DNA of 64,000 nucleotides from a virus (lineage: Duplodnaviria > Heunggongvirae > Uroviricota > Caudoviricetes), in IMG/VR virus record IMGVR_UViG_2974574300_000001, positions 1 through 64,000 of that record. One strand, 5' to 3'. Below are positions 6,225-48,428 of this stretch, one piece after another. The notes below the pieces were generated by a model. That model was not told the DNA's origin. It saw nothing but the letters and a program-made list of their open reading frames with translations, and did no database searches. A program made the translations under genes and the position numbers. The first letter of the stretch is position 1, and each line of letters opens with the position of its first letter.

Positions 6225-6225
6225 T

Positions 6226-6318: not shown

Positions 6319-6322
6319 ATCT

Positions 6323-26115: not shown

Positions 26116-27282
26116 ATGGCAGTAGGTGAAATTCAAATTAGTGCCTTGCCTCAAGCAGCCTTACCAATTGACCTTAGTGATATCTTCCATCTTAAGCAGG
26201 GTATTGAGGATAAGAGATGTACTCTTGAGCAATTACTTGCTCCACACTCAAGCCTAAGAAATAACCCTCACGGTGTTACTAAAACACAAATTGGTTTAGA
26301 TAATGTTATCAATGCTCTTCAGTTAGTTGCTGCAAATAACTTATCAGATGTTGCTAATGTCACTGAGGCAAGAGCAAATCTACAGATTATGTCTTCAGAA
26401 GAGGTTAATAGTCTTGTTCAACAGCATATTAATGATAAAAGTAACCCACACAATACAACTAAGGCACAGATTGGTTTGAGCAATGTCCAGAACTGGACAA
26501 CATCTAATCTTTATAATGAAGATGCAGATAAGTACGCTACAGCAAGAGCAGTAAATAACTTGTACAAGGCTGTTCAGGCTTCTTATCCAGTAGGTACTAT
26601 CCATCTCTCTATGAATCCTGCAAACCCTTCTACATATTTAATTTGTGGGGGTACTTGGGAGTTAGTTTCAAGAGGAAGAGCACTTGTAGGTTATGATAGT
26701 GATTCTAGGCCAGTTGGTAGTAACTTTGGCTCAAGTAGTGTTAGCTTATCTAGTAACAACCTACCATCACATAGCCATTCAATCTACCTAACTGGTGGTG
26801 GACACACTCATGGTGCTGCTATTACTATTGATGGCTTTGATTACGGCAATAAGAGCACAAACAGTTTCGATTATGGAACAAAGACCACTAATAGCACTGG
26901 TGCTCACACCCACTCAGTGAGTGGTTCAACAAATACCACAGGTAATCACACACATACTGTAGGTGGTCGTTATGGTGGTGACTCTATCGGTGGTAAACCG
27001 CGTGTTCAGGTATCTGGTACAGAACAGGTTTCCAGTGTAGCTGGTGACCACTCACACACTATTAGCGGTTCAACAAATACCACAGGCAATCACCAACACA
27101 CTGTTGCAATTGGTGCTCACACGCATACTGTTGCAATTGGTGCTCATACCCATAAAGGCACAGTAACTTTGCAGTCATCTGAGCATACTCACTCAGGTAC
27201 TACAGGTACTACAGGTGCTGGTCAAGCATTCAGCGTTGAACAACCATCCTTTGTGGTTTATGTATGGCAAAGAACCGCTTAA
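26116..27282 (+). CDS. tail fiber protein with C-terminal HxH repeat tip domain
   Basis: repeats GAHTHSVSG, GNHTHTVGG, GDHSHTISG, GNHQHTV, GAHTHTV; shares near-identical nucleotide blocks with 28741-29676. Confidence 0.7.
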   Translation: MAVGEIQISALPQAALPIDLSDIFHLKQGIEDKRCTLEQLLAPHSSLRNNPHGVTKTQIGLDNVINALQLVAANNLSDVANVTEARANLQIMSSEEVNSLVQQHINDKSNPHNTTKAQIGLSNVQNWTTSNLYNEDADKYATARAVNNLYKAVQASYPVGTIHLSMNPANPSTYLICGGTWELVSRGRALVGYDSDSRPVGSNFGSSSVSLSSNNLPSHSHSIYLTGGGHTHGAAITIDGFDYGNKSTNSFDYGTKTTNSTGAHTHSVSGSTNTTGNHTHTVGGRYGGDSIGGKPRVQVSGTEQVSSVAGDHSHTISGSTNTTGNHQHTVAIGAHTHTVAIGAHTHKGTVTLQSSEHTHSGTTGTTGAGQAFSVEQPSFVVYVWQRTA

Positions 27283-27295: not shown

Positions 27296-27318
27296 GGGGG
27301 CTGTACAGCCCTCTTTCT
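27296..27318 (+). terminator. possible terminator hairpin after fiber gene
   Basis: GGGGGCTG-TACAG-CCCTC hairpin followed by T-rich TCTTTCT. Confidence 0.35.
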
Positions 27319-27332
27319 AGAGGACAAAAATA

Positions 27333-28694
27333 ATGGCAGATTACAAATTGAGTGAATTAAACTCAATCGATACAATCCGTTCAGACGACCTTCTTCATGT
27401 CAGGGTTAAAAAGAGACCTGAAATGCTGGGTGATGAAGACCGTCGAATGACCTATCAAGACTTCTTAGCATCTTTTAAGCTTGAAAGATTTGTTCAGATT
27501 GCTGGTAGTACTATGACTGGTGACTTAGGGATTGTTAAGTTACTTTATGGTGGTAAGGCAGTCTTTGACCCTACAGGCTCTTCCGAGATTACTATGGGGG
27601 ATGTTTTAAAGACTTTTAAAATTAATGCAAATGGTCTTAAACTAACTATTGCAGATGCTTCAAGGTCTGCAACTGTTTATCATACTCTTAATAAGCCAAG
27701 TCCTAATGAGCTTGGGATGAGAACTAATGAAGAGAATGATGCAAGATATGCAAGGCTTGCTGTCACAAACACATTCTCTGGGACTCAGAACATTCAAGGT
27801 GATGTTAACTTACTTCGCCTTAGAAACCAAAATGCAAATAATGCACAATATATTGAAGGTGTAGACCTAGATGGCTCGGCTAGATGGTTGGTTGGTATTA
27901 GTAAAAATGGTTCTGATGCAGTGCAGTTGTACAATAATAAATATGACTCAGCTTTGACTATTGCAAGTAATATCTCTGTTAATAAGTCTTTAGCAATCAC
28001 TGGTCAAGTCCAACCTTCGGATTTCTCTAACTTAGATGCTAGATACTTTACTCAGACAGTTGCTAATCAGAGATTTGCACAGTTAGCTGGGAATAACACT
28101 TTTACAGGTGCTAATACTTTCACTAACCTTGTTGTTAAGAAGAATGCTAATGCTATTACTTTGCAGAATACTGATGCAGGTACAGCACTTTATATTCTCG
28201 GTAAGAGGTCTGATGGAACAAATAAATGGTATGTTGGTACAGATTCTGATGAGACACGTCTGAACATTTATAACTACCTTACAGGTTCACAGGTTTCACT
28301 AGGGACTACTATTGGTATTAATAAAACCGTGCAAATCAATGGTCAAGTTCAGCCATCTGATTGGACTAACATTGACTCTAGATATATTCCGGCAGCAACA
28401 TTAAGTACAATTGCAAGAACTAATGCACAAAATACTTTTAATGGTGCGCAAACAGTTGTTAGTGATGGCGAAGGTTTAGTTATTAAAAACTCTACTCAGA
28501 ATAGGCCATTGTATATTCGTGGTAAGGACGCTGCCAATGTATCAAGATGGTGGTTAGGTGTTGGTGACCCAAATTCTACTGATGTAGCCTTAAACAACAG
28601 CTTCTCTGGCACTCAGTTAATTTTAGGTAACTCATCTGCAAGTATCAATAAGACATTAACCCTAGCAGCAGATTCAACCTTCAGATTTCTCTAA
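27333..28694 (+). CDS. tail fiber protein (shaft) with repeated QPSDxxNxDxRY linker motifs
   Basis: 453 aa; internal repeats INKSLAITGQVQPSDFSNLDARY and INKTVQINGQVQPSDWTNIDSRY; third copy is split between frames at the 3' end. Confidence 0.65.
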   Translation: MADYKLSELNSIDTIRSDDLLHVRVKKRPEMLGDEDRRMTYQDFLASFKLERFVQIAGSTMTGDLGIVKLLYGGKAVFDPTGSSEITMGDVLKTFKINANGLKLTIADASRSATVYHTLNKPSPNELGMRTNEENDARYARLAVTNTFSGTQNIQGDVNLLRLRNQNANNAQYIEGVDLDGSARWLVGISKNGSDAVQLYNNKYDSALTIASNISVNKSLAITGQVQPSDFSNLDARYFTQTVANQRFAQLAGNNTFTGANTFTNLVVKKNANAITLQNTDAGTALYILGKRSDGTNKWYVGTDSDETRLNIYNYLTGSQVSLGTTIGINKTVQINGQVQPSDWTNIDSRYIPAATLSTIARTNAQNTFNGAQTVVSDGEGLVIKNSTQNRPLYIRGKDAANVSRWWLGVGDPNSTDVALNNSFSGTQLILGNSSASINKTLTLAADSTFRFL

Positions 28695-28740
28695 CTTAGA
28701 TGCTAGATATTACACGCAATCTACCGCAAACTCTAGGTAT

Positions 28741-29676
28741 ATGCTTGCTTATTCTTCTGGCACTGGTACAGAGGTAGGTGATAGTGATGGCATTGCTTGG
28801 AATGCTAAAACTGGTCTGTATAATGTTACAGGTTATAGTGGAGGCTCAACACAGCTTGTTTTCCAAATGTATCAGGGTGCAAGCTCTACTCCCTCTGCTC
28901 AATTAAAATTCAACTACAGGAATGGGGGTTTTTGGTATAGGTCATCAAGGGATGGTTTTGGTTTTGAAGAGGACTTCACACAAATTTATACAGAGAAGTA
29001 TAAACCAACTCCTTCAGCTATTGGTGCATACACTAAAGCAGAGACTGACCAGAAGATTGCAGAAGCGATTAGTGACTCTACAGACCTTAATAAAATCTAT
29101 CCAGTAGGTATTGTAACGTGGTTTAACAGTAATGTTAACCCTAATACCGCACTTCCTGGATTAACTTGGACGTACCTGAACAATGGTGTAGGTAGGACAA
29201 TCAGGGTTGCAGCAGCTAATGGTTCAGATGTTGCTACAACTGGAGGCTCAGATTCTGTTACGTTAGCAGTTGGAAACTTACCTTCACACACTCATAGTTT
29301 CTCTGCGACAACCTCTAGCTTTGACTACGGTACTAAAACCACTAACACTACTGGTGCTCACACCCACTCAGTGAGTGGTTCTACTAACAACACTGGTGCT
29401 CATACACATACAGTTGGTGGTCGTTATGGTGGTGACTCTATCGGTGGTAAACATCGTGTTCAGGTCTCAGGGACTGAACAGGTATCTAGCTATGATGGTG
29501 CTCACTCTCACACTGTATCTGGTACTGCTGCCTCTAACGGAAACCATGCTCACACAGTTGGTATTGGTGCTCACAGTCATACAGTTAGTGGTAACACTGG
29601 TGGTACAGGTTCTGGTTCAGCATTTAGTGTAACTAACCAGTTCTATAAGCTGATGGCTTGGGTAAGAACTGCTTAA
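28741..29676 (+). CDS. tail fiber distal tip with HxH repeats (probably continuous with 27333-28694)
   Basis: C-terminal GAHTHSVSG/GAHTHTVGG/GAHSHTVSG/GNHAHTV/GAHSHTV repeats; frame open from 28666 encoding QQIQPSDFSNLDARYY upstream of the ATG. Confidence 0.65.
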   Translation: MLAYSSGTGTEVGDSDGIAWNAKTGLYNVTGYSGGSTQLVFQMYQGASSTPSAQLKFNYRNGGFWYRSSRDGFGFEEDFTQIYTEKYKPTPSAIGAYTKAETDQKIAEAISDSTDLNKIYPVGIVTWFNSNVNPNTALPGLTWTYLNNGVGRTIRVAAANGSDVATTGGSDSVTLAVGNLPSHTHSFSATTSSFDYGTKTTNTTGAHTHSVSGSTNNTGAHTHTVGGRYGGDSIGGKHRVQVSGTEQVSSYDGAHSHTVSGTAASNGNHAHTVGIGAHSHTVSGNTGGTGSGSAFSVTNQFYKLMAWVRTA

Positions 29677-29755
29677 TCCCTTATTGACTGATTGTTAAGA
29701 TGGTGTTAATATTCTTTATGGGTATTCTCACCATCTTGGCTGATGAGGTGATTAA

Positions 29756-29950: not shown

Positions 29951-30316
29951 ATGAAGTGGCTAGAGGAAGCTTTTAAAAATAATATTGGTGCAATTGTTGT
30001 TGGTATTTTTAGTGTTATTGGGATGTATACCACGATGCAAGTTTCAAGTGGTAAGCAAGAAGTGTCTGTCACAACAAAGTTACAGCAGCTAGATAATTAT
30101 TCCAGAAGTAACTATTCAGCTATTCGTGATTTACAGTCTGACATGAGACTGATTCAGCTAGGGATGGAGAACCAGAAAGTTCAGTTAGAGAATGTTAAGG
30201 GTGAAAACGCAAAACTTACCAAAACCCTTGATAAATTCTCTGACAGTGTAAATAATCTGGCTCAATCAGTATCAGCCCTCCAAGCTATTACTGAGAAGAA
30301 CACAAAAGAACACTGA
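29951..30316 (+). CDS. membrane-anchored coiled-coil protein (possible holin/spanin-like)
   Basis: N-terminal TM helix IGAIVVGIFSVIGMYTT followed by coiled-coil rich sequence; located after tail fibers. Confidence 0.4.
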   Translation: MKWLEEAFKNNIGAIVVGIFSVIGMYTTMQVSSGKQEVSVTTKLQQLDNYSRSNYSAIRDLQSDMRLIQLGMENQKVQLENVKGENAKLTKTLDKFSDSVNNLAQSVSALQAITEKNTKEH

Positions 30317-30329
30317 AAATAAAATTTTA

Positions 30330-30360
30330 AGGCTCCTTTTTACGGGAGCCTTTTTGTTTT
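30330..30360. terminator. bidirectional rho-independent terminator between convergent modules
   Basis: AGGCTCC-loop-GGAGCCT hairpin with T-run on plus strand and A/T-run on minus. Confidence 0.65.
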
Positions 30361-31258
30361 ACTTACCTACTGACAAAGGTGCTTCAATCTTCCCTGCGTG
30401 TTTGTAGTTGTTAATACCACCAATAAAATCACTCGCAGTAAGGTGTTTTAGGTCACTTAGCGTGTTAAGTGGTAGACCAATCTCAAAAGTTGGTGCATGG
30501 AACTCTTCATTATTCATCAATTCATAAACCTGCTTCATATGGTTCTGATAAATCTGAGTATCCCCAAAGACACCTATCAAGTATCGTGGAGTGTACCCAG
30601 TCATCTTGCAAAGTACTTCCAGAATAAAACCATAAGATGCAATGTTAAACGGAAGTCCTAAAAAGGTGTCTACAGAACGTTGATACCATTGTAAGTCAAC
30701 TTCACCCTCGTTAGTGATATAAATCTGAAACAGAACATGACAAGGTGCTAAAGCCATCGAGTTGGATGCAATATCTGCTGCATTCCAAGCATTAACAAGC
30801 ATGTAGCGGTCTGTGATATCACCTTTCATCTTCGTTACTAAGGTCTCTAACTGGTCTACAACACAACCATTATGACCTTCAAAGTTTCTCCACTGAACCC
30901 CGTAGATTCTCCCACCTGCATCTTCTAACCAATCTTGTTCAGAAGAATAATTAGAGCTTAACCAGCGTTTAAAATCATCTGACCAGATAGTCCAGCGTTC
31001 TCCATCATTTTCACCCCAAGTACGGTAACGGAGTTCACCAAGTTTATTCTCACCGTTCAGGAACCATAAAGCTTCCCCAATAACTTGCCGTGTAAACACC
31101 TGTTTAGATGTTAAGAGTGGGAAACCAGTACGCATATCAAAACGAAATTGTGGTGGAGCGAATGCAGAGATAACATCTCCAGTTCGTGTAGTACGCAGTT
31201 CACCAACGGATAAAACATGGTTCAGGATATTTTTGTAACTTGAATCTGCTTGTGACAT
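30359..31258 (-). CDS. thyA: thymidylate synthase
   Basis: conserved ThyA active-site region PCHVLFQIY and YQRSVDTFLGLPFNIASY. Confidence 0.9.
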   Translation of the reverse strand: MSQADSSYKNILNHVLSVGELRTTRTGDVISAFAPPQFRFDMRTGFPLLTSKQVFTRQVIGEALWFLNGENKLGELRYRTWGENDGERWTIWSDDFKRWLSSNYSSEQDWLEDAGGRIYGVQWRNFEGHNGCVVDQLETLVTKMKGDITDRYMLVNAWNAADIASNSMALAPCHVLFQIYITNEGEVDLQWYQRSVDTFLGLPFNIASYGFILEVLCKMTGYTPRYLIGVFGDTQIYQNHMKQVYELMNNEEFHAPTFEIGLPLNTLSDLKHLTASDFIGGINNYKHAGKIEAPLSVGK

Positions 31259-31259
31259 A

Positions 31260-31805
31260 TCAAAAGTGTCCTTTTACTTGTGGAACATAGATTTCAAAGG
31301 TTGCTTTACCATCATCTGAAGGTCTTGACTGTACCTTTGCAAACACACGGCTATCATACAGTTTATCGAAGAAGTTTTCAAAAGGTAAATACACAGTGGC
31401 CTCTTCAGTAACTTTATGGAAAACTGTATGGAAAACTACACCAGCATACGGTAAAGCATCGACAAGAACACCTGCACCACCAATTACAAAGACATCTTCA
31501 TCAATAGAGCTATCAAGATACTTCAAAAATGCTCCAAAGGACTCTTTGCTGGCCTTAGCATACATTACATCATCTTTGTCAAAGTCTATACCTAAATATG
31601 GTACAGAATTTGTTAAGATGAGGTTTGTACGTTCTGGTAAAGGTTTACTACCCAGAGTCTTAAAAGTCTCATTACCCATCACTACTAAATTATCTTTAGT
31701 GAGTCTCTTAAACTCTTGCATATCCTGTTTATGTCGAGGCCACGGCATACCAGTTGGAGTACCAAACTCTCCATTTTCACCACTTGCAAAGATTAATTTA
31801 ATCAT
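31260..31805 (-). CDS. folA: dihydrofolate reductase
   Basis: N-terminal DHFR motif IFASGENGEFGTPTGMPW and NLVVMGNETFKTLG..PLPERTNLILT; adjacent to thyA. Confidence 0.85.
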   Translation of the reverse strand: MIKLIFASGENGEFGTPTGMPWPRHKQDMQEFKRLTKDNLVVMGNETFKTLGSKPLPERTNLILTNSVPYLGIDFDKDDVMYAKASKESFGAFLKYLDSSIDEDVFVIGGAGVLVDALPYAGVVFHTVFHKVTEEATVYLPFENFFDKLYDSRVFAKVQSRPSDDGKATFEIYVPQVKGHF

Positions 31806-32062
31806 TTTGTAAACCCTTTCTTAATGAACCAGTTGATAACATTCTTCACAGCTTTATTGCTATGGTAGATTAAGTGCGGTGTGGGTTGGTATGAACCATA
31901 AGCCCAGAAAGCAATGATTTCATTACATCCTGTACACCTTGTACTCTCTTCAGCAATATGACCGTTGGCTATTTCACTTACCTCACCTTGTAAGTCTGTA
32001 CACCCACAATGTGGACATCGGATAGGTGTTCCGTCAGACTCACAGCAGTGTTCAATTTTCAT
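31802..32062 (-). CDS. zinc-ribbon protein
   Basis: CPHCGC...CTGC cysteine pairs. Confidence 0.45.
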   Translation of the reverse strand: MKIEHCCESDGTPIRCPHCGCTDLQGEVSEIANGHIAEESTRCTGCNEIIAFWAYGSYQPTPHLIYHSNKAVKNVINWFIKKGFTK

Positions 32063-32578
32063 TTACTTAACCTCAAAAACTGGCTCAAGAACCAATATAA
32101 AGTCTACACAGTCATCTTCTTCATCCAGAATACCATCAAAGTTCTTAGGAACGAAGTCGAAGAGGCTCATAACAAAACAGTCAGAAGTGACCCTGATAGT
32201 TCCTCCCATGTTCTCTACAGTTAACACTGTACGACTTTCTTTTACCTCCCTCAGAAGATTACTCACAAAGTCATCTAAGAAATACTTCATTAGTGACTTG
32301 AAACCTTTAGGGTAATCTGTACCAGAGTATGTTTCAATCTGCGGTACAAGCTTAACATTTATACTAGTCTTTGTTAAGAATGTGCTAGAGAACATGCTAT
32401 CAGGTAACTTACAAACAGTCTTTCCAGTACCTTCATGCTCAATCTCAACAAAACCAGCTTCATCGCCACATGTAACTATTTTAAAAGATGCTTCATTCTC
32501 ATACTGTGAAGCCATAAACTTTTTAAGCATCACTTTAAGGAAATCTGCATGAGCATCTTGTAAGTAGATATCAATCAT
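32063..32578 (-). CDS. hypothetical protein
   Basis: ORF in operon. Confidence 0.45.
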   Translation of the reverse strand: MIDIYLQDAHADFLKVMLKKFMASQYENEASFKIVTCGDEAGFVEIEHEGTGKTVCKLPDSMFSSTFLTKTSINVKLVPQIETYSGTDYPKGFKSLMKYFLDDFVSNLLREVKESRTVLTVENMGGTIRVTSDCFVMSLFDFVPKNFDGILDEEDDCVDFILVLEPVFEVK

Positions 32579-32591
32579 AGTTAATCACCTA

Positions 32592-32951
32592 TTATGGGAA
32601 CAAGCACTTAATGTCATCGTTTTTGAAAACAAAACTTGTGTAGTTGTGACCGTCAACATCCAGCCAAACAGCCTGAACATCTACACCATCAAGATTCTGG
32701 TAAAGCTCTTTGATGAAGTGGTCTTTTACAATCTGACTGCTAGTTGTTTCCAGCTTAATGTTCGAGATTGCTGAACCTACAGCCATATAACCCATGACAC
32801 GTTTCTTCTCAGTATGCTTAATCTTACCATCTTTGTAAGCCATAATGAGATTGGAAAGAATCTTTACACCATAATACTTTTCAAGGTGAGTAGGTACACC
32901 ATAAAAGCCTAATGCGAAGTTTTCAGAGTGGATAATGTTTTCACGTTTCAT
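32592..32951 (-). CDS. hypothetical protein
   Basis: ORF in operon. Confidence 0.45.
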   Translation of the reverse strand: MKRENIIHSENFALGFYGVPTHLEKYYGVKILSNLIMAYKDGKIKHTEKKRVMGYMAVGSAISNIKLETTSSQIVKDHFIKELYQNLDGVDVQAVWLDVDGHNYTSFVFKNDDIKCLFP

Positions 32952-32952
32952 A

Positions 32953-33282
32953 TTAGTCTGCCAACCTTAAATTGAAATTAACACCAAATTTTTCACATAC
33001 TTCCAACATATACTCAAGGGAAACATTACCAGTGAGGTGGATTATGTTGGATACACGAGCCTGAGAGATACCGCAAATTTTAGCAACTTGTTCTTGAGAA
33101 AGACCTCTGGATTTAATCTCTCTCTTAAAACGATGTGCAACGAAGTCTCTCATTTCGTCTACATCCATTGGACAAATATAACTCTCCATTTCAGCCTCTC
33201 TATCAGCCTCCCAATCATCTTGTGGGGCATAAGGGTCAAAAACATCATTCATCTTTCTTCTTCCGTTTGCGTGAAGTGTCAA
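32953..33282 (-). CDS. helix-turn-helix DNA-binding protein (XRE-like)
   Basis: RGLSQEQVAKICGISQARVSNI HTH motif. Confidence 0.55.
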   Translation of the reverse strand: MTLHANGRRKMNDVFDPYAPQDDWEADREAEMESYICPMDVDEMRDFVAHRFKREIKSRGLSQEQVAKICGISQARVSNIIHLTGNVSLEYMLEVCEKFGVNFNLRLAD

Positions 33283-33457
33283 TCAATGAATCTATGTTTG
33301 TAGCCCTAACCTTTTCACGTTCATCGTTAAGATAATCATCAAGAACCTTTTCAATCTGTGAATCATCTTGACAGATAACTGTAAAGACTGTAAAGCCGTC
33401 TGTATCATCAATTATCTTACCATAACCGCTTCTGGGATGTAACTTTTTAAGAGCCAT
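33245..33457 (-). CDS. hypothetical protein
   Basis: 70 aa ORF overlapping neighbours. Confidence 0.3.
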   Translation of the reverse strand: MALKKLHPRSGYGKIIDDTDGFTVFTVICQDDSQIEKVLDDYLNDEREKVRATNIDSLIDTSRKRKKKDE

Positions 33458-33458
33458 A

Positions 33459-33842
33459 TCAAATACCTGTGCAGCTTCTGTTTTCTAAGAAATACTCAAC
33501 ACCATACATAGCTTTTTGCATCAAATCTTCTTTAAACTGGATACGATGGTTGCGCATAGCCTGTACATCAATATCATCATGGTGCTTCTCTTTAATATTT
33601 GCAGATTGCAGGAAATACTCTCCAAGAACGCGATACTGATAGTCAGTTACCTTATCAGTCATCTCTGTTAAAGACTCTTCAGAGATTGGTTTCAGTAGCT
33701 CACCATTAGCTAGAGCAAGACCTTTAACAATCTGGCAAGTGTCTTCTGGAACACCTGATAAGTCCACATTTGGAAGTTCTGTTGCATTGACTGGTAAATT
33801 CATTGCCATAACCATTGCAGCAGCTAATAAAATCTTTTTCAT
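33459..33842 (-). CDS. secreted protein with signal peptide
   Basis: N-terminal MKKILLAAAMVMAMNLPVNA signal peptide-like sequence. Confidence 0.5.
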   Translation of the reverse strand: MKKILLAAAMVMAMNLPVNATELPNVDLSGVPEDTCQIVKGLALANGELLKPISEESLTEMTDKVTDYQYRVLGEYFLQSANIKEKHHDDIDVQAMRNHRIQFKEDLMQKAMYGVEYFLENRSCTGI

Positions 33843-34124
33843 AATGACCTCAAAGTTATATTAAATTTTGTATTACATTGAGTATAAAAATAAGCTATAA
33901 CACCTGACTTGTCAACAGATTTTATAGCTTATTTGGCAGATTTTTTATAAGGCTACTGCCATCCTTCCATACCAGACTACGCCATGCCAGACCAGACTTC
34001 ACATCACCTTACCGTGCAATACATCGCTTAAAACCCTCTTAGAAGACTCTTAAGTGATGCTGGTGAGTACCCGTTGGTTCATGCTGCTCAGTATACTCAC
34101 CAAATTTTCTATGTCAACAACTTT

Positions 34125-35231
34125 TTATTCGTAATCTCGAATAACTAGCCCAACAGGGAACTGTAAAGACCCCTTACGAGTCATCTTCTGGAACTGAACC
34201 GTCAAAGGTTTCCCGATAAACTCTTCAGGATGCTCAGCAAGATACTGTTTCTTCTCATGAGTAGTTTTCCATGAGACATCTACAAAGACGTTAGGAAGAG
34301 TCTCTACAACGAACTTGCCATGACCACGTTTATCGGTCTTTACACCAGTCACTTTAAACTCTTCAGTGTGCATCTTCTTGTGCTTAATCAAGAAGTAGGA
34401 ACGGTGACCACACTCGTAGAAAGATTCTTCAGAGATTGAGCGGTACATTGCACCTTCAAACTTAGCTTCAACCCACTTATCATGAGCTTCATCAAACTCT
34501 TCCCAAGAATTTACACGACGAGACTTAACAGGAACAACTTTACAGCCGTCTCTAAAGTCATTCAATGGTGAAGTCTCAATAATATCTCTACGCTCAGGCC
34601 ACGTCTTAGTACTGTCACAGATATCATACCAGTAAAACTTGAGTAGATGTCGGTCAGGATTGTCTTCATTTTTAATCATGGAGACAATATCTTCTAAGTC
34701 CAACCCATGAGCATAGATTTCACCATCAAATTCATCAACATCTTTATGGAGCCTCAACATTGCCATAATGTCAGGTATTAGCTCAGTAGGAATTTTATAA
34801 ATAGTGTTCTCACGAGAATATGCTGTAAATACACTGCCAATACTTAAGTGTCTTGAAATTCTACAACGGACACCATCAAGTTTTGGTTGAGCATCAGCAG
34901 GGAACTTCAGATACTTTGCATGGCTAACCTTTGCAGCATCATGAGCAAGCTGTACACCTACCTTCTCAGTATTCTGTGCAGACTCTTTTGTGTAAGCGTA
35001 ACCTTTACGGTCTACTTGTTTCTTGTACTTAGCAGAAACTTCAAAGAGAGCTTGCTGTTCAGCGTTACGCTCATTCTTTTTACCGATGTTCTTAGGCTCT
35101 GCTGTGTACTCTTCAAACATCATCTTGCCATTTTCTTTACCGTAGGTTGTAATAACTTTGTCACCTACAGCAACACATGACCAGACGTTAAAAGAGCCGT
35201 CTTTATTTTGTTTGTATAGGATTGTCATTTT
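34125..35231 (-). CDS. ATP-dependent DNA ligase
   Basis: adenylation motif KLDGVR (KxDG); size typical of T7-type ligases. Confidence 0.8.
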   Translation of the reverse strand, partial: KMTILYKQNKDGSFNVWSCVAVGDKVITTYGKENGKMMFEEYTAEPKNIGKKNERNAEQQALFEVSAKYKKQVDRKGYAYTKESAQNTEKVGVQLAHDAAKVSHAKYLKFPADAQPKLDGVRCRISRHLSIGSVFTAYSRENTIYKIPTELIPDIMAMLRLHKDVDEFDGEIYAHGLDLEDIVSMIKNEDNPDRHLLKFYWYDICDSTKTWPERRDIIETSPLNDFRDGCKVVPVKSRRVNSWEEFDEAHDKWVEAKFEGAMYRSISEESFYECGHRSYFLIKHKKMHTEEFKVTGVKTDKRGHGKFVVETLPNVFVDVSWKTTHEKKQYLAEHPEEFIGKPLTVQFQKMTRKGSLQFPVGLVIRDYE

Positions 35232-35421
35232 ATTCCTCTGAGTGATACCAAGTATTGCAAGCATTACATGCGTAAAGCTCTAAGTCATTTTTATCTGGTT
35301 TGTGGAAACAGTTGGCTCCGCAGTGGCAACGAAATGGCTTTCCACCAACTGTCAGGATGAAGGACTGAACCTTTCCATCAGGAGTTCGTACAGCATTTTT
35401 ATGCTTATCTTCTTTGTTCAT
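35230..35421 (-). CDS. small zinc-ribbon protein
   Basis: CHCGANC...CNACNTW cysteine motifs. Confidence 0.4.
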   Translation of the reverse strand: MNKEDKHKNAVRTPDGKVQSFILTVGGKPFRCHCGANCFHKPDKNDLELYACNACNTWYHSEE

Positions 35422-35624
35422 TTTCTCTTACCACCAATCTCTACGTCGATAACTTGAACATCGCCAGCAACATCAAACTTATGAATGATGCTTTCAACAG
35501 TGTAAGTCCAACCATCAATGCGAACCAGCTCACCTTCTCGTGGAACTATTGGATTACGTTGAGCTACGGTTGTAGTGGAGTGAACAGCATCATAACAGTA
35601 GATATAGTTTACTAGGACTTCCAT
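35418..35624 (-). CDS. hypothetical protein
   Basis: ORF trimmed to ATG with GAGGT RBS to avoid overlap with lipoprotein gene. Confidence 0.35.
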   Translation of the reverse strand: MEVLVNYIYCYDAVHSTTTVAQRNPIVPREGELVRIDGWTYTVESIIHKFDVAGDVQVIDVEIGGKRK

Positions 35625-35634
35625 CGTGAAAACC

Positions 35635-35892
35635 TCACTCAATAACCGTAGTATGTGATTCCCCATTTTTGCCATAGCTGTAAGATGTTGTTGTTTGAGA
35701 GTTTGGGCATCTGACAACAACAATATCTCTGCTTATAGCATCACCATGTAACTTGTATACTCTGCAATCTTGCATCTCTGGTGGGAGGCTGTAAGAAGCA
35801 TTTTTATCTTCATAAGAAGGGTTGCAGCCAGATAGAAAAATTACTCCAAGTGCAACCATTGCTTTCACACAACTCTTAACCTTATTGTTCAC
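35635..35892 (-). CDS. small lipoprotein
   Basis: signal peptide with lipobox LSGC. Confidence 0.5.
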   Translation of the reverse strand: MNNKVKSCVKAMVALGVIFLSGCNPSYEDKNASYSLPPEMQDCRVYKLHGDAISRDIVVVRCPNSQTTTSYSYGKNGESHTTVIE

Positions 35893-36024
35893 GATAGTCT
35901 ACCTCTCTGTATGTTTTTAAATAGTGAGTGATGAGTTCTGGTAATTCACTACGTTTAACGTTTGAACGAAGAAGTGTCCAGTCAAAACCTTTACCAACCC
36001 TTCCCCAGAGACTGTACATTTTCT

Positions 36025-36258
36025 TCATAGCAACTCCAGAATATCAATACGTTCACCTTTGAGTACTCCAGTACGGTCTCTTGCAATCTTACCATCAACA
36101 ATAAGAATGTGCGCAGACTTTAAAGCCTCACGATTAAAACCTTTTACGAACTTACTAGGCATCACTACAATGTACATCTCCTGAATCAACTCTGGAGTAT
36201 AGCAATTGTCATGAAGTTGCTGAATAACGTCTGCAAGTGTCATTTTTGATGTCTCCAA
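36025..36258 (-). CDS. hypothetical protein
   Basis: ORF. Confidence 0.4.
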   Translation of the reverse strand: METSKMTLADVIQQLHDNCYTPELIQEMYIVVMPSKFVKGFNREALKSAHILIVDGKIARDRTGVLKGERIDILELL

Positions 36259-36449
36259 TACTCAATGTCAATAAGTTCTTGTGCAATGCTTTTCAGATTA
36301 CCTTTCAAGAAAACCTTCTCAGAACCTGAAAGAGATGAATTGTCAATTAACCTGTTCATCCTCTCAAACAACTTCTGCTTACGGTTCTTGATAGTTTCCT
36401 TTGAAGCACCTTTCATCATTGCTGCATGGGTTCTTCCACGGTGGCTCAT
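36240..36449 (-). CDS. hypothetical protein
   Basis: ORF. Confidence 0.4.
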   Translation of the reverse strand: MSHRGRTHAAMMKGASKETIKNRKQKLFERMNRLIDNSSLSGSEKVFLKGNLKSIAQELIDIEYWRHQK

Positions 36450-36500
36450 AAGCCCTCCTATATAAGATACAGTATAAGGTACTCTTCCCTGAGCACCTTG

Positions 36501-37016
36501 TCAACTTAGTTTTGCAAACTCTCCGTGGAGTTTAATAGCAGCTTCACAGTAAGCTTTATGGGCTTCTTCTTCCGTTGTGTATGTTCCTATATGTATAGTC
36601 TTGCCATTATGGTTAATCTGGGCTATCCACTTACCAGACTTGCTTCTACTTGTACCTTTTAAGTTTTTTGATGTTCTGGGTTGTCTCCTATTAGACATGT
36701 TCTGCTCTTTTGTGGCCTCTCTTAGATTGTCCCAAGCGTTATTCAAACCATCTCCATCTTTGTGGTCAATGTGTTTATCAGGCCACTTACCTGTCATCCA
36801 GAACCAAGCAATTCGGTGATTACCTGTCCTGTATCCTAAAATCTGTGTGTGCATATACACACCAGACCTTGTGCGCTTAATTGCTCCGGCTTGGCTTCCA
36901 ATGACCACCCTACTACTATGTGGAGGTCTCCCAATCCATGTTAAGACCCCTGTTTCGGGGTCATAATCTAACCAAGACTTTAACTGTTCATGTGTGAATC
37001 CACAATCTCTCATCAA
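36501..37016 (-). CDS. HNH homing endonuclease with AP2-like DNA-binding domain
   Basis: HIDHKDGDGLNNAWDNLREAT HNH motif and C-terminal GKWIAQI...GTYTTEEEAHKAY AP2-like domain; paralogs at 47411 and 60835. Confidence 0.75.
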   Translation of the reverse strand: MMRDCGFTHEQLKSWLDYDPETGVLTWIGRPPHSSRVVIGSQAGAIKRTRSGVYMHTQILGYRTGNHRIAWFWMTGKWPDKHIDHKDGDGLNNAWDNLREATKEQNMSNRRQPRTSKNLKGTSRSKSGKWIAQINHNGKTIHIGTYTTEEEAHKAYCEAAIKLHGEFAKLS

Positions 37017-37567
37017 TGTACCTCATACCAGCTCTTACCAACTTTACCAGTACCAGTTACAAGCGTTTCCTCCTTAAGACCTAAGTTTCTTGATGCCTGA
37101 CCATACATCCAGTCAATTACTGCTTTAACATCCTGTGTCATCTCTTCTGGGCACTCCCAACTATTCTCGTCGTGGTATGCTAAAAGCAATCTAGCACCAA
37201 TAGCTGGTTTTCGACCATTCAGCTTTGTAAGACCCTCTTCACAAGCCCTTCTACAAGCAAGGTTGATAGCTTCATTCTGAACCTGACTTTCCGAACCCAT
37301 GAGCAAGTAATTTAAAAGTTTGTGCGGAGATTTACACCACAACCATGCACCTGCTACCTTTACAAAACCACCCTTAGAGATTGCAGCAGTCTTACCAAAC
37401 ACCTCTTCAAGAGCCTTCTTAGTGGCTTTGAAGTCTGCTTCCAAATTATCTATCAACTTTTTAATCTTAGGAAGGCGTACAAAGTAAGTTTGCTTAGTTA
37501 AAGCACCCTCTTCAGTAGTTGCAGCTTTAATCGTCTTAGCAAACTTCTCGTCACCTGCCCCAAACAA
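37013..37567 (-). CDS. DNA polymerase (family A, T7-like), 3' exon
   Basis: begins with FGAGDEK continuing motif B; contains motif C LLAYHDE. Confidence 0.8.
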   Translation of the reverse strand: MFGAGDEKFAKTIKAATTEEGALTKQTYFVRLPKIKKLIDNLEADFKATKKALEEVFGKTAAISKGGFVKVAGAWLWCKSPHKLLNYLLMGSESQVQNEAINLACRRACEEGLTKLNGRKPAIGARLLLAYHDENSWECPEEMTQDVKAVIDWMYGQASRNLGLKEETLVTGTGKVGKSWYEVH

Positions 37568-37569
37568 TA

Positions 37570-38370
37570 CATCTGGTCAATACACTCGCAAGGTGTACCA
37601 GTTCTCTTATGAACTTCTCCGCATTTCTACGGAGTGTCGGACTATATCACGTAGCAGTGCTGCTACCGTTGCGCTTGGGATGGTCATTAGCTTACCACCC
37701 TACTCTACTCAGTTCATACGTTAAGTATGCTTTTCGATAGTCTCTGAACGTTTCTCTGTTAGGAATCTCTATAATCATGTTATTTACTCAGGTAGTCAAT
37801 TGCCCTTTGCATATTATCAACGCTATCTGCAAGCAACCCCAAAGCTCTATTGCAATTGTGGCACAACATACCTCTTACTTTTCCGGTTTTGTGGTCATGG
37901 TCAACGACAAGTTTAGCCTTATGCCGTGAGCTATTCATGATAAAACCTTCACCGCCACAAATTTGACATTTGTAATCACAGTTACGAAGTAGGGTTTCAA
38001 CCTCTTCTCTTTCTAAACCATATGTTCTCAGGTAGTAATTCTTAACTCTACCTTTCTCTCCGCAATGCGAAGAACAATAAACTTGCCTTGCTGTTCTAGG
38101 CATGAACACCTTCTCACAGCTAGGACATTTCTTAGTAAGAACCCTATGTTCTGCTCTTCTGTCAAATTTTAATACGCAACTTCTGCACCGTTTTTGATTG
38201 TATTGGTATGGTTTAAACTCTGCACCACACTCAGTACACAATCTCTCTTTGTAACCTGCCATTGTCTCTCTCCTTTGTTTTAGGAGTCCTAACAGAGACT
38301 TCGCTGCTGATTACCATGTCTTTACAGACTTAGGCTTCCAGCAATTCACAACGTTTTACATGCGCCACTG
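37570..38370 (-). mobile_element. group I intron (putative) in DNA polymerase gene
   Basis: about 800 nt separating polymerase motif B halves (IYA.. | ..FGAGDEK); boundaries compatible with exon ending in U and intron ending in G; carries HNH ORF. Confidence 0.6.
37780..38262 (-). CDS. intron-encoded HNH endonuclease (endonuclease VII-like with zinc ribbon)
   Basis: DHDHKTGKVRGMLCHNCNRALG HNH/EndoVII signature plus CxxC pairs. Confidence 0.75.
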   Translation of the reverse strand: MAGYKERLCTECGAEFKPYQYNQKRCRSCVLKFDRRAEHRVLTKKCPSCEKVFMPRTARQVYCSSHCGEKGRVKNYYLRTYGLEREEVETLLRNCDYKCQICGGEGFIMNSSRHKAKLVVDHDHKTGKVRGMLCHNCNRALGLLADSVDNMQRAIDYLSK

Positions 38371-40513
38371 ACGCATAAATACCATTCTTGGCTTTCTTAC
38401 GACCCTTACTAATTTCTTGAAGAAGGTTTGTATCCTGAGTAGCTCGACAAGTCAAGATATCTTCCTCTTTATTAAGGCTGAAGTAGATACTATTTAAAGT
38501 ATGTGCATCAGTTCCTGAGTACACCACGTACAAGTCATTTTCCGAATCATAATGCAAATACTTGTCAATCTCTGGGTTTAGATACTGGTCAAAATGTTTA
38601 CAATAGTATCTACCATCCTCTTGTTTGACAAACTCAACCTCTTCTTTACCCTCTGTCACTGCTTTGGTGAACTCTTTATCACCCATAAAGTTACACAGCA
38701 GTACAAGTTGCGCGCTATTCATATCTGCTGAAACAATATTAGTCCCTTCTTCACAAGTCCACACCTCCCGCATAGGTGCTCCATAGACAGCAGCACCAGA
38801 TGGTACGTTTACAATACCATATTGTGTCATACGCCCAGTTGAAGTACCAAACACCATTGCACCAGCACTAAGGCGACCATCAGGACGAATCTGGTTCAAC
38901 CAACCTTTTTCATCATCCTTTGAGTTCTCAATAGTTCTGCGTCTGTGCATCAAAGTATAGTATTTAGCAATCTTCTGTCCAAGCTCACCTTCAATCGTAT
39001 CATAAGATGATTCAGTAAGTTTTGGCGAAGTACGGATTAAGCAAGGCTCAAGCAAATCTGTGTACTTCTTCACAGACCAGTTATGCTCAATGTACTGGAC
39101 ACCTTCATGTTCAACATAACTCAAACCACACCGCTCAACCATTTCCTGCCACTTAGGATGTTTTGTAATCATCTTTTTATTGTCTTTGAAACGACAAACT
39201 TTGACAGGACGACCATCTGAGTCTTTCTTGTAGTTCCAGTCATCTGGAATCCAACCAACTGATTTCAAGTAGTCTTTAACAACTGCTACCTGAGTCATAC
39301 GAGAAACTTCGAACTCAATTGGTGTATATGGTGCATCAATCAAACCTGTGTAGCGACTTGACTCAAGTTCAAAGTGGTTAACGACGTGGCTGTTATAGTA
39401 CTTCACAGTTTTGACTGTTTTTACTGGTTTCCAGTCTTTGCATTTCTTACCAATCTTTGCGTTCAACTCATTGCAAATTGCACGAGCATCCTTCATTGCT
39501 ACAAAGCCTTCCTTGTACTCTTCACCAGTTACAGTGTTGGTTGGTGTATAGCAATTTCTCTTTTCAATGTTAAAAATCTTTGTAGTTGGCTTACCAAATG
39601 GCTTGATTTCATAAGTTTGCATCTCACCGTTACGTACCTGCTGACGATACTTTGTTTTAGGGTACTTGGTAATTCTCTTCAGTCCATCTGCATGACCAAA
39701 TGTTTCAACATACTCATTCCAAGCTTTTGCAAACTCTTCTCCAGTGACTTTACCTTTGGTCTTAATAGTTGGAGGAAGATGTGGTTCAACCTCTGAAGCA
39801 AGCTCATTAGTCAACTTGTCAAGTTCCTTCACATGGAACTCCATAAGCTCTTTATCAGCTTTCCAACCATTGATAGCTTGTTGACTCATCCAGAAAGATG
39901 TTTCTTTAGCTCGCATGTAGGTTTCATAAGTGTCTATGCCACACTTCTTAAGCTTGAGATACTCATTATCAAGTGCCCGTTTAGTTTTGGCGTTAATACG
40001 GATATCTTCTACAACACGAGTGAAGATTTCTGCATTCCACACACCCCAATGCTCAATCTCTGGTTTACGAACACCAACACGAGCACCCCATGCAGCCAAA
40101 CCATGAGCACCTTTATAACCCTTTGGAGTTGGTCTATCCATCCACTGAACACGAGACTGGATAAGAGAATCCTGAAAGAAATTACTCCACGGCTTACATT
40201 TTGGATTATCAAAGTTCCATAAATCCGGTGCAATGTGATTGAAGACCCACCAGTCATAACCGAGGCCGTTATGGATACAAAGTCGTTTTGCCTTTAACGC
40301 AAACTCAACACCTTCACGTAAACCACCCTTAATGTACTTAGTGTACTTGTGACCGAGGATAGGCTCATCTGTAAAGACCCATACAGGTGGCTCTTCATCG
40401 TCAGATTTATAGTCTGCAAAGGCCATTACGTGAACTTTAGTGAACTCAAGGAGTAAACCATCAGTTTCTGTATCACCAACCAAATGTAAGTTTTTAAAAT
40501 CTACGTTTTCCAT
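38330..40513 (-). CDS. DNA polymerase (family A, T7-like), 5' exon with 3'-5' exonuclease domain
   Basis: exo motif GDTETDG, HNGLGYDW, and motif B start RKKAKNGIYA at the ORF end; reading frame continues into intron to stop at 38330. Confidence 0.85.
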   Translation of the reverse strand: MENVDFKNLHLVGDTETDGLLLEFTKVHVMAFADYKSDDEEPPVWVFTDEPILGHKYTKYIKGGLREGVEFALKAKRLCIHNGLGYDWWVFNHIAPDLWNFDNPKCKPWSNFFQDSLIQSRVQWMDRPTPKGYKGAHGLAAWGARVGVRKPEIEHWGVWNAEIFTRVVEDIRINAKTKRALDNEYLKLKKCGIDTYETYMRAKETSFWMSQQAINGWKADKELMEFHVKELDKLTNELASEVEPHLPPTIKTKGKVTGEEFAKAWNEYVETFGHADGLKRITKYPKTKYRQQVRNGEMQTYEIKPFGKPTTKIFNIEKRNCYTPTNTVTGEEYKEGFVAMKDARAICNELNAKIGKKCKDWKPVKTVKTVKYYNSHVVNHFELESSRYTGLIDAPYTPIEFEVSRMTQVAVVKDYLKSVGWIPDDWNYKKDSDGRPVKVCRFKDNKKMITKHPKWQEMVERCGLSYVEHEGVQYIEHNWSVKKYTDLLEPCLIRTSPKLTESSYDTIEGELGQKIAKYYTLMHRRRTIENSKDDEKGWLNQIRPDGRLSAGAMVFGTSTGRMTQYGIVNVPSGAAVYGAPMREVWTCEEGTNIVSADMNSAQLVLLCNFMGDKEFTKAVTEGKEEVEFVKQEDGRYYCKHFDQYLNPEIDKYLHYDSENDLYVVYSGTDAHTLNSIYFSLNKEEDILTCRATQDTNLLQEISKGRKKAKNGIYASVAHVKRCELLEA

Positions 40514-40709
40514 TTTTACTCCCTCTAAAATCATTAACCCCATACATTACTGCAAAAAATTATAAAAAGCAAGTTGACAATACACTTGACAAGGTGTTAA
40601 TCTTTGCGAAGTGGGTTTTTACTTAAAAGGTTACTTAACAGTTTAACTATACAGATACTTTAAAACTCTTAAAAGATTATTTAATAGCTTTTAAAAAGCT
40701 TTAAAGTAT

Positions 40710-40726
40710 AACGTATAGAATACGTT
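40710..40726. promoter_or_regulatory. palindromic operator-like site in divergent intergenic region
   Basis: AACGTAT-AGA-ATACGTT inverted repeat between divergent replication operons. Confidence 0.4.
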
Positions 40727-40769
40727 AAGATAAAAGATTAAACTTAATAGTTACTTAAAAGAGGCTTAC

Positions 40770-41192
40770 ATGCAGAAAATGTTTGTTCACCCAGACATAG
40801 CTGACTTTGTTAGAGCTTTGCAGAAGTTGGAAGAACTTGACATTGCTGCTCAACGGGAATATGCTCACCATCACAGGAGAATGGTTGATATACAACATGA
40901 AATAGAGTTGTCTGAAAACTATGAAGATGACTTAAAATGCTCTGTATTTGAGCATATGAAAGATGTTGCTACAGCGAGACGTAAAGCTAAAGACACAGTT
41001 GCTTTACTAGATTCTCTTAAAAAGAGGTTGCAAAGTGGTACAGACCTGTGTAATCTAGCGTCACTGATTAACGATGTTGAAACTTCTTGGGATAGGCACT
41101 ATTATCCACGTTCTGAAAAGACACTTGACTTTTCTTCATCCGAAAACTTAAAATGTTCTAGAAAGAAACTTAACCAACTGAGAGAGAAATAA
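40770..41192 (+). CDS. hypothetical protein
   Basis: ORF. Confidence 0.45.
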   Translation: MQKMFVHPDIADFVRALQKLEELDIAAQREYAHHHRRMVDIQHEIELSENYEDDLKCSVFEHMKDVATARRKAKDTVALLDSLKKRLQSGTDLCNLASLINDVETSWDRHYYPRSEKTLDFSSSENLKCSRKKLNQLREK

Positions 41193-41193
41193 T

Positions 41194-41994
41194 ATGAATA
41201 TCGATGTAGAAAAGATGCTTGAAGAAAAAGGTATTGACGAAGCGTTCTTAATCAATGCTGTAGAAAGCATGGCTATGATTCTTCGTGGTAACAACTACAC
41301 AGAACAGTTTATGCCTGCAAGCTATAACTTGCCTGAAGACAAGTCTGATAACGGTGCTTTTGCAGAACAGGTTAACATGATGTTGACAGACACTACACTT
41401 GCTCTAGCATCTATTGCTGTTGGTGTTGATGCACTTGCTGAGTTTATTTTTTATGAAATGCAAAAGAATGACTATATCAGGATGTCAGACGAAGATAAGG
41501 AACTGTTACTGACTAAGGATACTGATTTCCTTATTGACATGCTTATCTCATCAACAAGTGTTGTTATGGCTGCGCTTGAGAAGCGTATGGAAGAAAAGCT
41601 GTCACGATATGAAAAGCTTGATTGGGGCGTAGAAGAATTAAGCCCACGAATCAAAGAGATTATCCAGCAAACTAAAAAGTCTTTGGAAGAAGCTGTTGAA
41701 AATGACTCTGTAGCTGATATAGAGCCACTTCAGGTGAAAGTTGCGCTAATGATTCCAGCTATCTCTACGATGATGAATATCGTTGCACTAATCCAACTTT
41801 CACAGATGATGGGTATGAGTATTGAGTTCATTGAGGAGATGACTGGTGGTGTTAGTATGCAAGCAATCAATGATGTTTTGGTGAATATTGGTGCTTCAAT
41901 CATTGAAGAGAAACTACGCATTAACTTCGGTGATGATTTTGTGAAGCAACTCTCAGCTATGGCTGAAAAAGAGTCTGCTGAGCAACTGCACTAA
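41194..41994 (+). CDS. hypothetical protein
   Basis: ORF. Confidence 0.45.
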   Translation: MNIDVEKMLEEKGIDEAFLINAVESMAMILRGNNYTEQFMPASYNLPEDKSDNGAFAEQVNMMLTDTTLALASIAVGVDALAEFIFYEMQKNDYIRMSDEDKELLLTKDTDFLIDMLISSTSVVMAALEKRMEEKLSRYEKLDWGVEELSPRIKEIIQQTKKSLEEAVENDSVADIEPLQVKVALMIPAISTMMNIVALIQLSQMMGMSIEFIEEMTGGVSMQAINDVLVNIGASIIEEKLRINFGDDFVKQLSAMAEKESAEQLH

Positions 41995-42011
41995 GCCTTT
42001 ATAAATCTTAC

Positions 42012-42037
42012 AAGCCTCCTTAGTTGGGGGCTTTTTA
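42012..42037 (+). terminator. rho-independent terminator
   Basis: AAGCCTCC-TTAGTT-GGGGGCTT hairpin followed by TTTTT. Confidence 0.55.
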
Positions 42038-42055
42038 GTAATTAATGGAGATAAA

Positions 42056-42799
42056 ATGAGTAAAATCATCGCATTTACTGGAAAGGCACGTTCTGGAAAA
42101 GACACCTCGTGCTCTATTGTGAAGAACATCTTAGAGGATGAGTACGGCTACAATGTTGCAGTAATGGCCTATGCAGACAACCTTAAGCTATCTGCATCAA
42201 AGATATTTGACCTGACTTGGAATGACCTGTATGGTGAAACTAAAGAGACTCCACAGGTTTTTGACTTATCATATCCTGAACTGATGTCAAAAGTTACGGA
42301 AGCTATGGAGTTCACCTTCAGAGATGAACGTTACCATATGGACTTCAAGCTTATGTCAGAGTTAACCGGACGATTGATTATGGAGCTTAAGAAGGTCGCT
42401 AAACCAACTCTATTGACACGTCTGGGATTTAGCAAGAAGTATAAATTCTCATCAAGACAAATTCAACAGATTTGGGGTACTGAAGTTATCCGTAAAGTTA
42501 TGGGTGACAAATTCTGGGCTAAAGACCTTGAAAAAAGAATGGTTAGATTCTATGAAATGTGCTCACTTAGAAATCAATATGGTTTTGTCTTAATCAGTGA
42601 TTTAAGATTTGACTCTGAAGCTGAATGGCTGAGTAGATTTGCACACCAAACTATTGAAGTAAAAAGAGACAATGTGGACAAAGTTTCATCACATGTTTCA
42701 GAAAATGGGATTTCTACAAAATATGAGCGTGACATTATTCATAATAATGGTACTCTTGCAGACCTTGAGAACAAGCTAAGAGCCATCATTAAAGTTTAA
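42056..42799 (+). CDS. deoxynucleoside monophosphate kinase (T4 gp1-like)
   Basis: N-terminal P-loop IAFTGKARSGKDT resembling T4 dNMP kinase. Confidence 0.65.
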   Translation: MSKIIAFTGKARSGKDTSCSIVKNILEDEYGYNVAVMAYADNLKLSASKIFDLTWNDLYGETKETPQVFDLSYPELMSKVTEAMEFTFRDERYHMDFKLMSELTGRLIMELKKVAKPTLLTRLGFSKKYKFSSRQIQQIWGTEVIRKVMGDKFWAKDLEKRMVRFYEMCSLRNQYGFVLISDLRFDSEAEWLSRFAHQTIEVKRDNVDKVSSHVSENGISTKYERDIIHNNGTLADLENKLRAIIKV

Positions 42800-42807
42800 A
42801 AGAGAGA

Positions 42808-43008
42808 ATGAAGATGAGAGTAAAAGACAATTTTAAAGTTATTGACCACCGTTTAGTGGAACTCTCATCTCTTTCCAATGAGGTAATGATTGAACGTCTT
42901 AAGAGAGTTGAATCACGAAGGAAAGAGATTGCAGATGAAATTCATGAACTGGACAAGATTGAAAATGGATTGAAGGCAGAACTACAACGAAGAGGTGCTA
43001 ATGTCTAA
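42808..43008 (+). CDS. hypothetical protein
   Basis: ORF. Confidence 0.4.
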   Translation: MKMRVKDNFKVIDHRLVELSSLSNEVMIERLKRVESRRKEIADEIHELDKIENGLKAELQRRGANV

Positions 43009-44986: not shown

Positions 44987-45242
44987 TAGTTATAAAAGAG
45001 AGGGGTTCACACCCTTCTTTGAAGAAAAAAGTTTAAATAAATTTCAGGAAGAGTGTTTGACAAAGATTGATAGGTTCTATAGAATGCTCCTTATGAAATG
45101 CGATGGGGAAGTTGAGATAAAAGAAGATTTCCACCAAAGCATAATTACAGTCATCATTGCGCTGCCTCAGCATAATATTAGTTGGCTGTTTATAATTAAA
45201 GAAAATGTGTTTGAATATCAAGTATATCGGAGAATATCATGA
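44949..45242 (+). CDS. hypothetical protein
   Basis: ORF overlapping helicase 3' end; start uncertain. Confidence 0.3.
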   Translation: MRMQMTAHSKLSDSYKREGFTPFFEEKSLNKFQEECLTKIDRFYRMLLMKCDGEVEIKEDFHQSIITVIIALPQHNISWLFIIKENVFEYQVYRRIS

Positions 45243-45388
45243 AACACTCTAAAGCATTTGAAAAAGTTTTTGGGGATTCCTTAAAAGCCACTGCTGGAAA
45301 ACCAGCAAAATACTATGAAGAAAAACGTGTAAGAACTGGAAAAACTGCACGTAAAGCAGCTTCTAAAGATAAGCACAACTTCCAGTAA
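45239..45388 (+). CDS. small basic protein
   Basis: 49 codon ORF with GGAGA RBS, ATGA overlap with upstream stop. Confidence 0.3.
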   Translation: MKHSKAFEKVFGDSLKATAGKPAKYYEEKRVRTGKTARKAASKDKHNFQ

Positions 45389-45395
45389 TTAGTAT

Positions 45396-45424
45396 TTGAC
45401 AATAGAGTATCAACAAATTAGAAT
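45396..45424 (+). promoter_or_regulatory. sigma70-like promoter (TTGACA-17-TAGAAT)
   Basis: TTGACA 45396-45401, 17 nt spacer, TAGAAT 45419-45424, upstream of SSB-like gene. Confidence 0.6.
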
Positions 45425-45460
45425 TGGTACTCTTCATAAATTGAGATAGAGGTTTAAATA

Positions 45461-46324: not shown

Positions 46325-46342
46325 TCTCTAAAAGTTACTTTA

Positions 46343-46371
46343 AAGCCCTGTACTTAGTATGGGGCTTTTTC
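46343..46371 (+). terminator. possible rho-independent terminator
   Basis: AAGCCC ... GGGCTT hairpin followed by TTTTT. Confidence 0.45.
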
Positions 46372-46386
46372 ATATGGAGAGCCATA

Positions 46387-48407: not shown

Positions 48408-48428
48408 TAACTATTAAGAGAGAATAAA

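Follow-up and report, generated by a model that had tools for sequence, protein, structure and literature searches.

Fibre genes are classic targets of frameshifts in the laboratory, the stf gene of phage lambda PaPa being the example, and phage tail genes can also contain programmed frameshifts (e.g., lambda G/GT), which relatives have in common and which, by way of a slippery heptamer, give two needed products. The lambda PaPa stf frameshift (orf401/orf314) was reportedly described by Hendrix and Duda in Science in 1992. Among the long tail fibres (LTFs) of the genus Felixounavirus, gp27 of Bas63 is known from cryo-EM to be a single-chain homotrimer, and the gene upstream of it, gp26, encodes a shorter fibre with its own gp37-like tip; occupancy of Bas63 virions by the long fibre ranges from 0 to 6 per baseplate (PMC12609058). 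The respective roles of long and short fibres in recognizing Salmonella are still unresolved for Felixounavirus (PMC8594841), and no statement on fibres was found in the PhageMaP essentiality paper on Bas63.

The stretch of DNA analysed here (the window) comprises 64,000 nt, positions 1 to 64,000 of IMG/VR record IMGVR_UViG_2974574300_000001. BLAST of positions 27300-29700 and 30000-50000 against GenBank phages placed it in the genus Felixounavirus, the Felix O1-like myophages of Salmonella and E. coli. The closest complete genomes in this search were PMBT20, SPT-1, and the GEC_vB phages, at ~96-98% identity, and no GenBank phage record was identical to the window. In 2-kb bins, identity to PMBT20 was 99-100% over most of 6-28 kb (bins 12001 and 14001 were somewhat lower), and in this structural module the window was nearer to PMBT20 than to ST11 or Felix O1. 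Exact-protein matching of both fibre open reading frames (ORFs), the short fibre, and a lineage-specific protein recovered no independent assembly of the same phage. The 22 tRNA genes clustered at 2154-6398 are typical of Felix O1-like phages. Divergence is greatest at 34000-39500, which has ~89-91% identity to PMBT20 and can be aligned only in part with ST11 and Felix O1; this segment lies in the ligase/DNA polymerase region, in which relatives carry HNH and endonuclease VII inserts.

Where relatives encode one LTF, the window has two ORFs (Table 1). As noted in a preliminary description of this DNA, the ORF at 27333-28694 (ORF1) has the C terminus ...INKTLTLAADSTFRFL, directly before its stop, and the +1 frame is open from 28666 (QQIQPSDFSNLDARYY...) through the ATG of a second ORF (ORF2, 28741-29676) to the end of that ORF. 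Re-insertion of GG after 28667 yields a 781-codon ORF with zero internal stops, and the repaired protein is identical (100%) to that of PMBT20 over residues 1-445. ORF1 as recorded has 100% identity to the PMBT20 LTF across 98% of the ORF. In PHROGs, ORF1 corresponds to positions 1-447 (E 2e-249) and ORF2 to positions 471-780 (E 1e-158) of the 780-position phrog_4277. By these alignments, the two ORFs are collinear halves of a single LTF gene.

Table 1. Predicted features of the fibre region in the window
Feature	Position	Strand	Remarks
Short-tail-fibre (STF) gene, intact	26116..27282	+	388 aa; Gp10_C (Pfam), phrog_2097; counterpart Bas63 gp26 (PMC12609058)
LTF gene, 5' part	27333..28694	+	453 codons; residues 1-445 native, last 8 (ADSTFRFL) out of frame
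Linker block copy 1	28011..28054	+	QPSDFSNLDARYF
Linker block copy 2	28350..28393	+	QPSDWTNIDSRYI; weaker copy, 64% identical
Two-frame overlap	28666..28694	+	29 nt with both frames open; sole place for a ribosomal shift
LTF gene, 3' part	28666..29676	+	+1 frame; native residues 447-781; first ATG 28741 (311-aa ORF)
Lesion site	28667..28668	+	Two G's missing between these bases; GGG Gly codon to G
Linker block copy 3	28675..28718	+	QPSDFSNLDARYY; in this record readable in the +1 frame only

By homology and gene order the gene is the Felixounavirus LTF, with Felix O1 ORF184 and Bas63 gp27 as orthologues. In the repaired protein, Pfam identifies gp37_trimer (PF20744; E 8.5e-84) three times, the third copy being at residues 379-473, followed by gp37_C (PF12604, 475-584) and a His-x-His (HxH) fibre repeat (PF03335), and sequence matches in the PDB include the T4 gp37 tip (2xgf) and the Mu S fibre (8ju3). 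The gene lies directly after the short-fibre gene and before two small ORFs, thymidylate synthase, and DHFR. The full-length phrog_4277 match, the order of gp37_trimer repeats, gp37_C, and HxH tip, and the synteny are thus those of the family. The family's single ORF of ~780 aa is broken at codon 446 in the window, because of the 2-nt lesion alone, and the window gene is an LTF family member by descent and, as recorded, a disrupted copy. The break falls within the third gp37_trimer copy, leaving the rest of the third linker, gp37_C, the collar, and the HxH needle tip in the 3' part.

Two nucleotides have been deleted at the lesion, where intact relatives have CTAGCAGGGCAGATT and CTAGCAGCAGATT is found in the window and in ST11. 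In a four-way alignment of the junction, the single difference is CTAGCAGGGCAGATTCAACC in the relatives versus CTAGCA--GCAGATTCAACC in the window, and over the whole gene this 2-nt gap is the sole length difference between the window and PMBT20. The frame changes at Gly446 because the GGG codon has lost two G's, 7 nt ahead of the third linker block. On these alignments, the loss of GG after 28667 is the only cause of the split. An intact, 781-aa fibre would yield the tryptic junction peptide TLTLAGQIQPSDFSNLDAR.

The linkers are recognizable in the repaired protein as ...NKSLAITGQVQPSDFSNLDARYF, ...NKTVQINGQVQPSDWTNIDSRYI, and ...NKTLTLAGQIQPSDFSNLDARYY. The proposal that a frame repair would restore a third linker copy holds (QPSD occurs at residues 227, 340, and 449), as does the reported duplication of a nucleotide block, with blocks 1 and 3 sharing 89% identity over 44 nt. 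The linker motif is not a chance match, since Pfam scores three PF20744 copies. Placed in the alignment of the third linker, "GQ[IV]QPSD", the deletion hits the Gly codon, and the lost bases therefore belong to a conserved codon of that linker. A single fibre gene split at its third linker, repairable near 28666-28672, was what the preliminary description had proposed, and comparison with intact orthologues agrees.

Single-CDS LTF genes are annotated in PMBT20 (2346 nt, 781 aa), Felix O1 (ORF184; 2349 nt, 782 aa), and SA1 (2340 nt, 779 aa). Comparison with related phage genomes, suggested earlier as a check, found a single in-frame LTF ORF in relatives, with the exception of ST11 (MF370225). 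For example, a 341-nt query across the junction was identical to ST11 alone among records covering the junction, and Felix O1, PMBT20, VSe11, VSe102, and AN17P8 all span 343 nt there, in frame. When ORF1 was searched against 5.8 billion proteins, the best 120 clusters were almost all 767-793 aa in length, none of these 120 was ~453 aa long, and every one of their alignments ended at about residue 446 of the query. With ST11 the sole sharer and no cluster of ~453 aa, the split is therefore not a conserved feature. Exact-pattern scans of IMG/VR, metagenome contigs, and GTDB genomes gave no match to the deletion-bearing junction; these scans say nothing either way, because in IMG/VR the intact junction was also without a match, as were the deletion-bearing patterns of two other sites shared with ST11.

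The GenBank annotation of ST11, in which the same split is already visible, gives the fibre gene as three "tail fibers protein" CDSs. There are three pieces because ~181 nt (window 28129-28309) are also missing upstream, a loss that may reflect either further decay of an already dead gene or a 180-nt deletion that keeps the frame, combined with a 1-nt error. In the literature on ST11 and on Felix O1 fibre frameshifts, no study of the GG deletion was found.

Two ENA metagenome scaffolds also carry altered LTF genes. In one from a related Felixounavirus (L012, 61.9 kb; gene at 2501-4873), an in-frame stop occurs at LTF residue 570 (...DIGAYT*AETDQK...); apart from this stop the gene aligns in one frame, making it an independent truncation before the receptor-binding tip. 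In the other (L011, 87.7 kb; gene at 2501-5040), the LTF is divided between two ORFs, of 601 and 245 aa, that overlap in different frames, and the gp37_C region is replaced by a divergent, longer middle segment.

As the origin of the lesion we infer an error in the sequence record, an under-called G run, with a probability of about 0.5. The run at Gly446 would have been called as G instead of GGG, splitting an intact LTF gene in the record with nothing programmed about the split. The out-of-frame half has no stops and differs from PMBT20 by 34 synonymous and 9 non-synonymous codons, and this lack of downstream decay suggests that the lesion is either recent or not real. Other indels bear on the reliability of the record. 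At 13541 a run of five A's is reduced to four, which puts the major capsid gene (phrog_29; 12540-13616) out of frame at residue 335; PMBT20, ST11, and Felix O1 do not have this deletion. The native last 34 codons of this gene (DRDEGIDFEAHSYMLPYCTRPQLLVDVRADAKGS, then a stop) are intact in the other frame, with the native end at ~13645. This frameshift is almost certainly a sequence error, as a viable phage is unlikely to carry it. Compared to ST11 and Felix O1, the window also has a C4-to-C3 deletion at 2836, in the anticodon arm of tRNA-Asp (2806-2882), and because of this deletion ARAGORN calls the gene "tRNA-???" with a 4-base anticodon, gtca.

The ST11 record (L006/L007) raises similar doubts. 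Compared with the window and PMBT20, it lacks single bases at many points, and core genes are broken as a result, among them rIIA (split into three), NAMPT and the anaerobic RNR activase (each into two), and a 449-aa head-module gene, and it looks error-laden because these splits of conserved genes coincide with single-base deletions. Four indels, at 3818, 13679, 28668, and 47452, are unique to the window and ST11, and all four are deletions in G or C runs. Most ST11-specific indels are likewise deletions in G/C runs, a class that makes up 31% of all runs. Indels at 553, 2088, 4033, 40740, and 57701 are all in A/T runs, those at 553, 40740, and 57701 being placed in non-coding DNA. The three shared deletions outside the LTF each remove a single base: the one at 3818 lies in a spacer of the tRNA cluster, the one at 13679 gives the gene that follows the capsid gene a different start (MNVLYSDPANN... 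in place of MCYTGDPANN...), and the one at 47452 puts out of frame an HNH homing-endonuclease gene that directly follows the exonuclease gene. Beyond ST11, the shared deletions were absent from all 226 records covering 13679 and all 50 covering 47452, where the sequence context is conserved.

Other observations weigh against an artefact. Sequencing errors do not usually reduce a short run from three bases to one. It is also implausible that two non-identical records acquired four identical indels by chance, so that an artefact would require something systematic common to both, for instance one platform or pipeline.

The principal alternative, which we regard as a substantial possibility without favouring it, is a genuine GG deletion that has recently inactivated the LTF in a lineage or recombining population that includes ST11, leaving a 453-aa stub without the C-terminal tip and infection via the intact STF. 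The lesion has the shape of such an allele, a small indel between flanks otherwise identical to those of intact wild alleles. The deletions shared with ST11 (GG plus three more unique indels) speak for this reading, and all of them are tolerable, falling in a tRNA spacer, in first codons with an alternative start, in a homing-endonuclease gene, and in the LTF; this placement is the pattern that selection on real mutations would be expected to produce. About 900 nt around 13679 are identical between the window and ST11, compatible with inheritance. Near 47452, at a homing-endonuclease boundary, the upstream haplotypes of the two stay different until 9 nt short of the deletion. The further ~181-nt deletion in the ST11 LTF would also be in keeping with a dead gene, although it can equally be an in-frame 180-nt deletion plus a 1-nt error, and the independent disruptions in the two metagenome scaffolds (an in-frame stop in L012 and a frame change in L011) show the same gene affected elsewhere. 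In Bas63, baseplates with 0-6 LTFs and an STF with its own gp37-like tip indicate how a phage could manage (PMC12609058), and an intact STF with its own receptor-binding tip might be the reason that an LTF-null phage stays viable. Against a real allele stand the capsid frameshift in the same record, which is hardly real and makes window indels untrustworthy, the heavy load of errors in the ST11 record, and the absence of decay in the downstream half of the LTF. The lesion also belongs to the class of G/C-run deletions that otherwise breaks core genes in both records. A sequence error and a real, recent LTF-null allele are not separable here, and either would be an ordinary finding.

A broader version of the real-allele reading would hold that LTF-null alleles recur in Felix O1-like phages (window and ST11, L011, and L012), with a conditionally dispensable fibre and a recombination-driven switch in host range or adsorption. 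We consider this unlikely.

Recombination has also been proposed as the direct origin of the frame change, as a scar of an imprecise exchange between fibre modules at the conserved linker. The LTF gene is mosaic, and SA1, one of the divergent alleles, differs strongly from the window up to 28672 and is then identical for 40 nt, regaining identity exactly in the linker block, which is 45 nt long and begins 7 nt beyond the lesion. This block looks like an island where divergent alleles become alike again, and it could be crossover-friendly, but it did not cause the frame change here. Apart from GG, the window is identical to PMBT20 over ~27900-28852, to Felix O1 over 28383-29087, and to ST11 over 28353-29009, with no change of parentage at the lesion. 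A scar is very improbable, and the comparison of flanks largely refutes it. The recombination joint named among possible causes in the preliminary description is thus not supported, since the intact PMBT20 and Felix O1 alleles flank the break identically for hundreds of bases. Sequencing error and pseudogenisation, also named there, are both compatible with the data; recoding is not supported, given a split absent from relatives except ST11 and a downstream fold of z = +1.14.

It is highly improbable that the break is real and functional, with the fibre working as non-covalently joined proximal (453-aa) and distal (311-aa, from ATG 28741) parts by analogy with the multi-protein long fibre of T4. 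The break does lie at a module boundary, just ahead of the last linker, and ATG 28741 has a weak AGG upstream and an intact ORF downstream. This ATG and its context are, however, the same in intact relatives, where the codon is internal (...SRYML...), and with the context unchanged, nothing has evolved for restart. Moreover, the DNA between the two parts encodes no joint or hinge protein, the third gp37_trimer repeat is cut in two, and none of the best 120 homologue clusters matches the length of the 453-aa ORF.

Ribosomal frameshifting, whether programmed or fortuitous (+1 or -2, within 28666-28694), which would restore a full-length fibre, is extremely improbable: the 29 nt with both frames open and a UUU C at 28686-28689, where tRNA-Phe could by chance re-pair in +1 to give a product one residue shorter than the native fibre, are set against a two-frame arrangement that is not conserved (relatives except ST11 are in frame), a CUC UAA at the stop that gives no +1 re-pairing, and a downstream RNA with no stimulatory fold (z = +1.14; 179 of 200 shuffles fold as well). 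On inspection, 28666-28694 held no A/T run, no heptameric or prfB-like slip site, and no Shine-Dalgarno-like stimulator. Both conservation in relatives and a slippery sequence with a stimulator are lacking, and recoding is not supported because the split is not conserved and neither a slippery site nor a stimulatory structure is present.

Whether the lesion is an error in the record or a real null allele, the finding is commonplace: a gene of a well-known fibre family that is broken, or was mis-sequenced, in an ordinary way, with nothing new in kind. For annotation, the value lies in merging the two "tail fibre" CDSs or flagging them as one disrupted gene, and the window record warrants a check for run-length errors, the major capsid gene included. 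If the deletion is real, it would provide a Felix O1-type virus whose long fibre is knocked out naturally, a probe for the roles of long versus short fibres.

Compared with known systems, the locus resembles lambda G/GT in having two overlapping frames in a tail gene, but the conservation, slippery heptamer, and two needed products found there have no counterpart in the window. Lambda PaPa stf is the nearest precedent, with a small deletion splitting a side-fibre gene that is one ORF in wild relatives, and with a laboratory phage viable without the fibre; there, the lesion and fibreless phenotype are reported to have been shown by experiment. ST11 shares the identical GG deletion and is identical over 341 nt around the lesion, with its pieces already annotated as separate CDSs, and differs in the loss of ~181 nt from its LTF and in a divergence of 1-4% from the window elsewhere. 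The Felixounavirus LTFs (Felix O1 ORF184, AAQ14804; PMBT20, XDJ00428; and Bas63 gp27) match the window gene in position, in phrog_4277 assignment, and in order of Pfam domains, and differ in being single ORFs of 781-782 aa where the window has a 2-nt deletion at codon 446.
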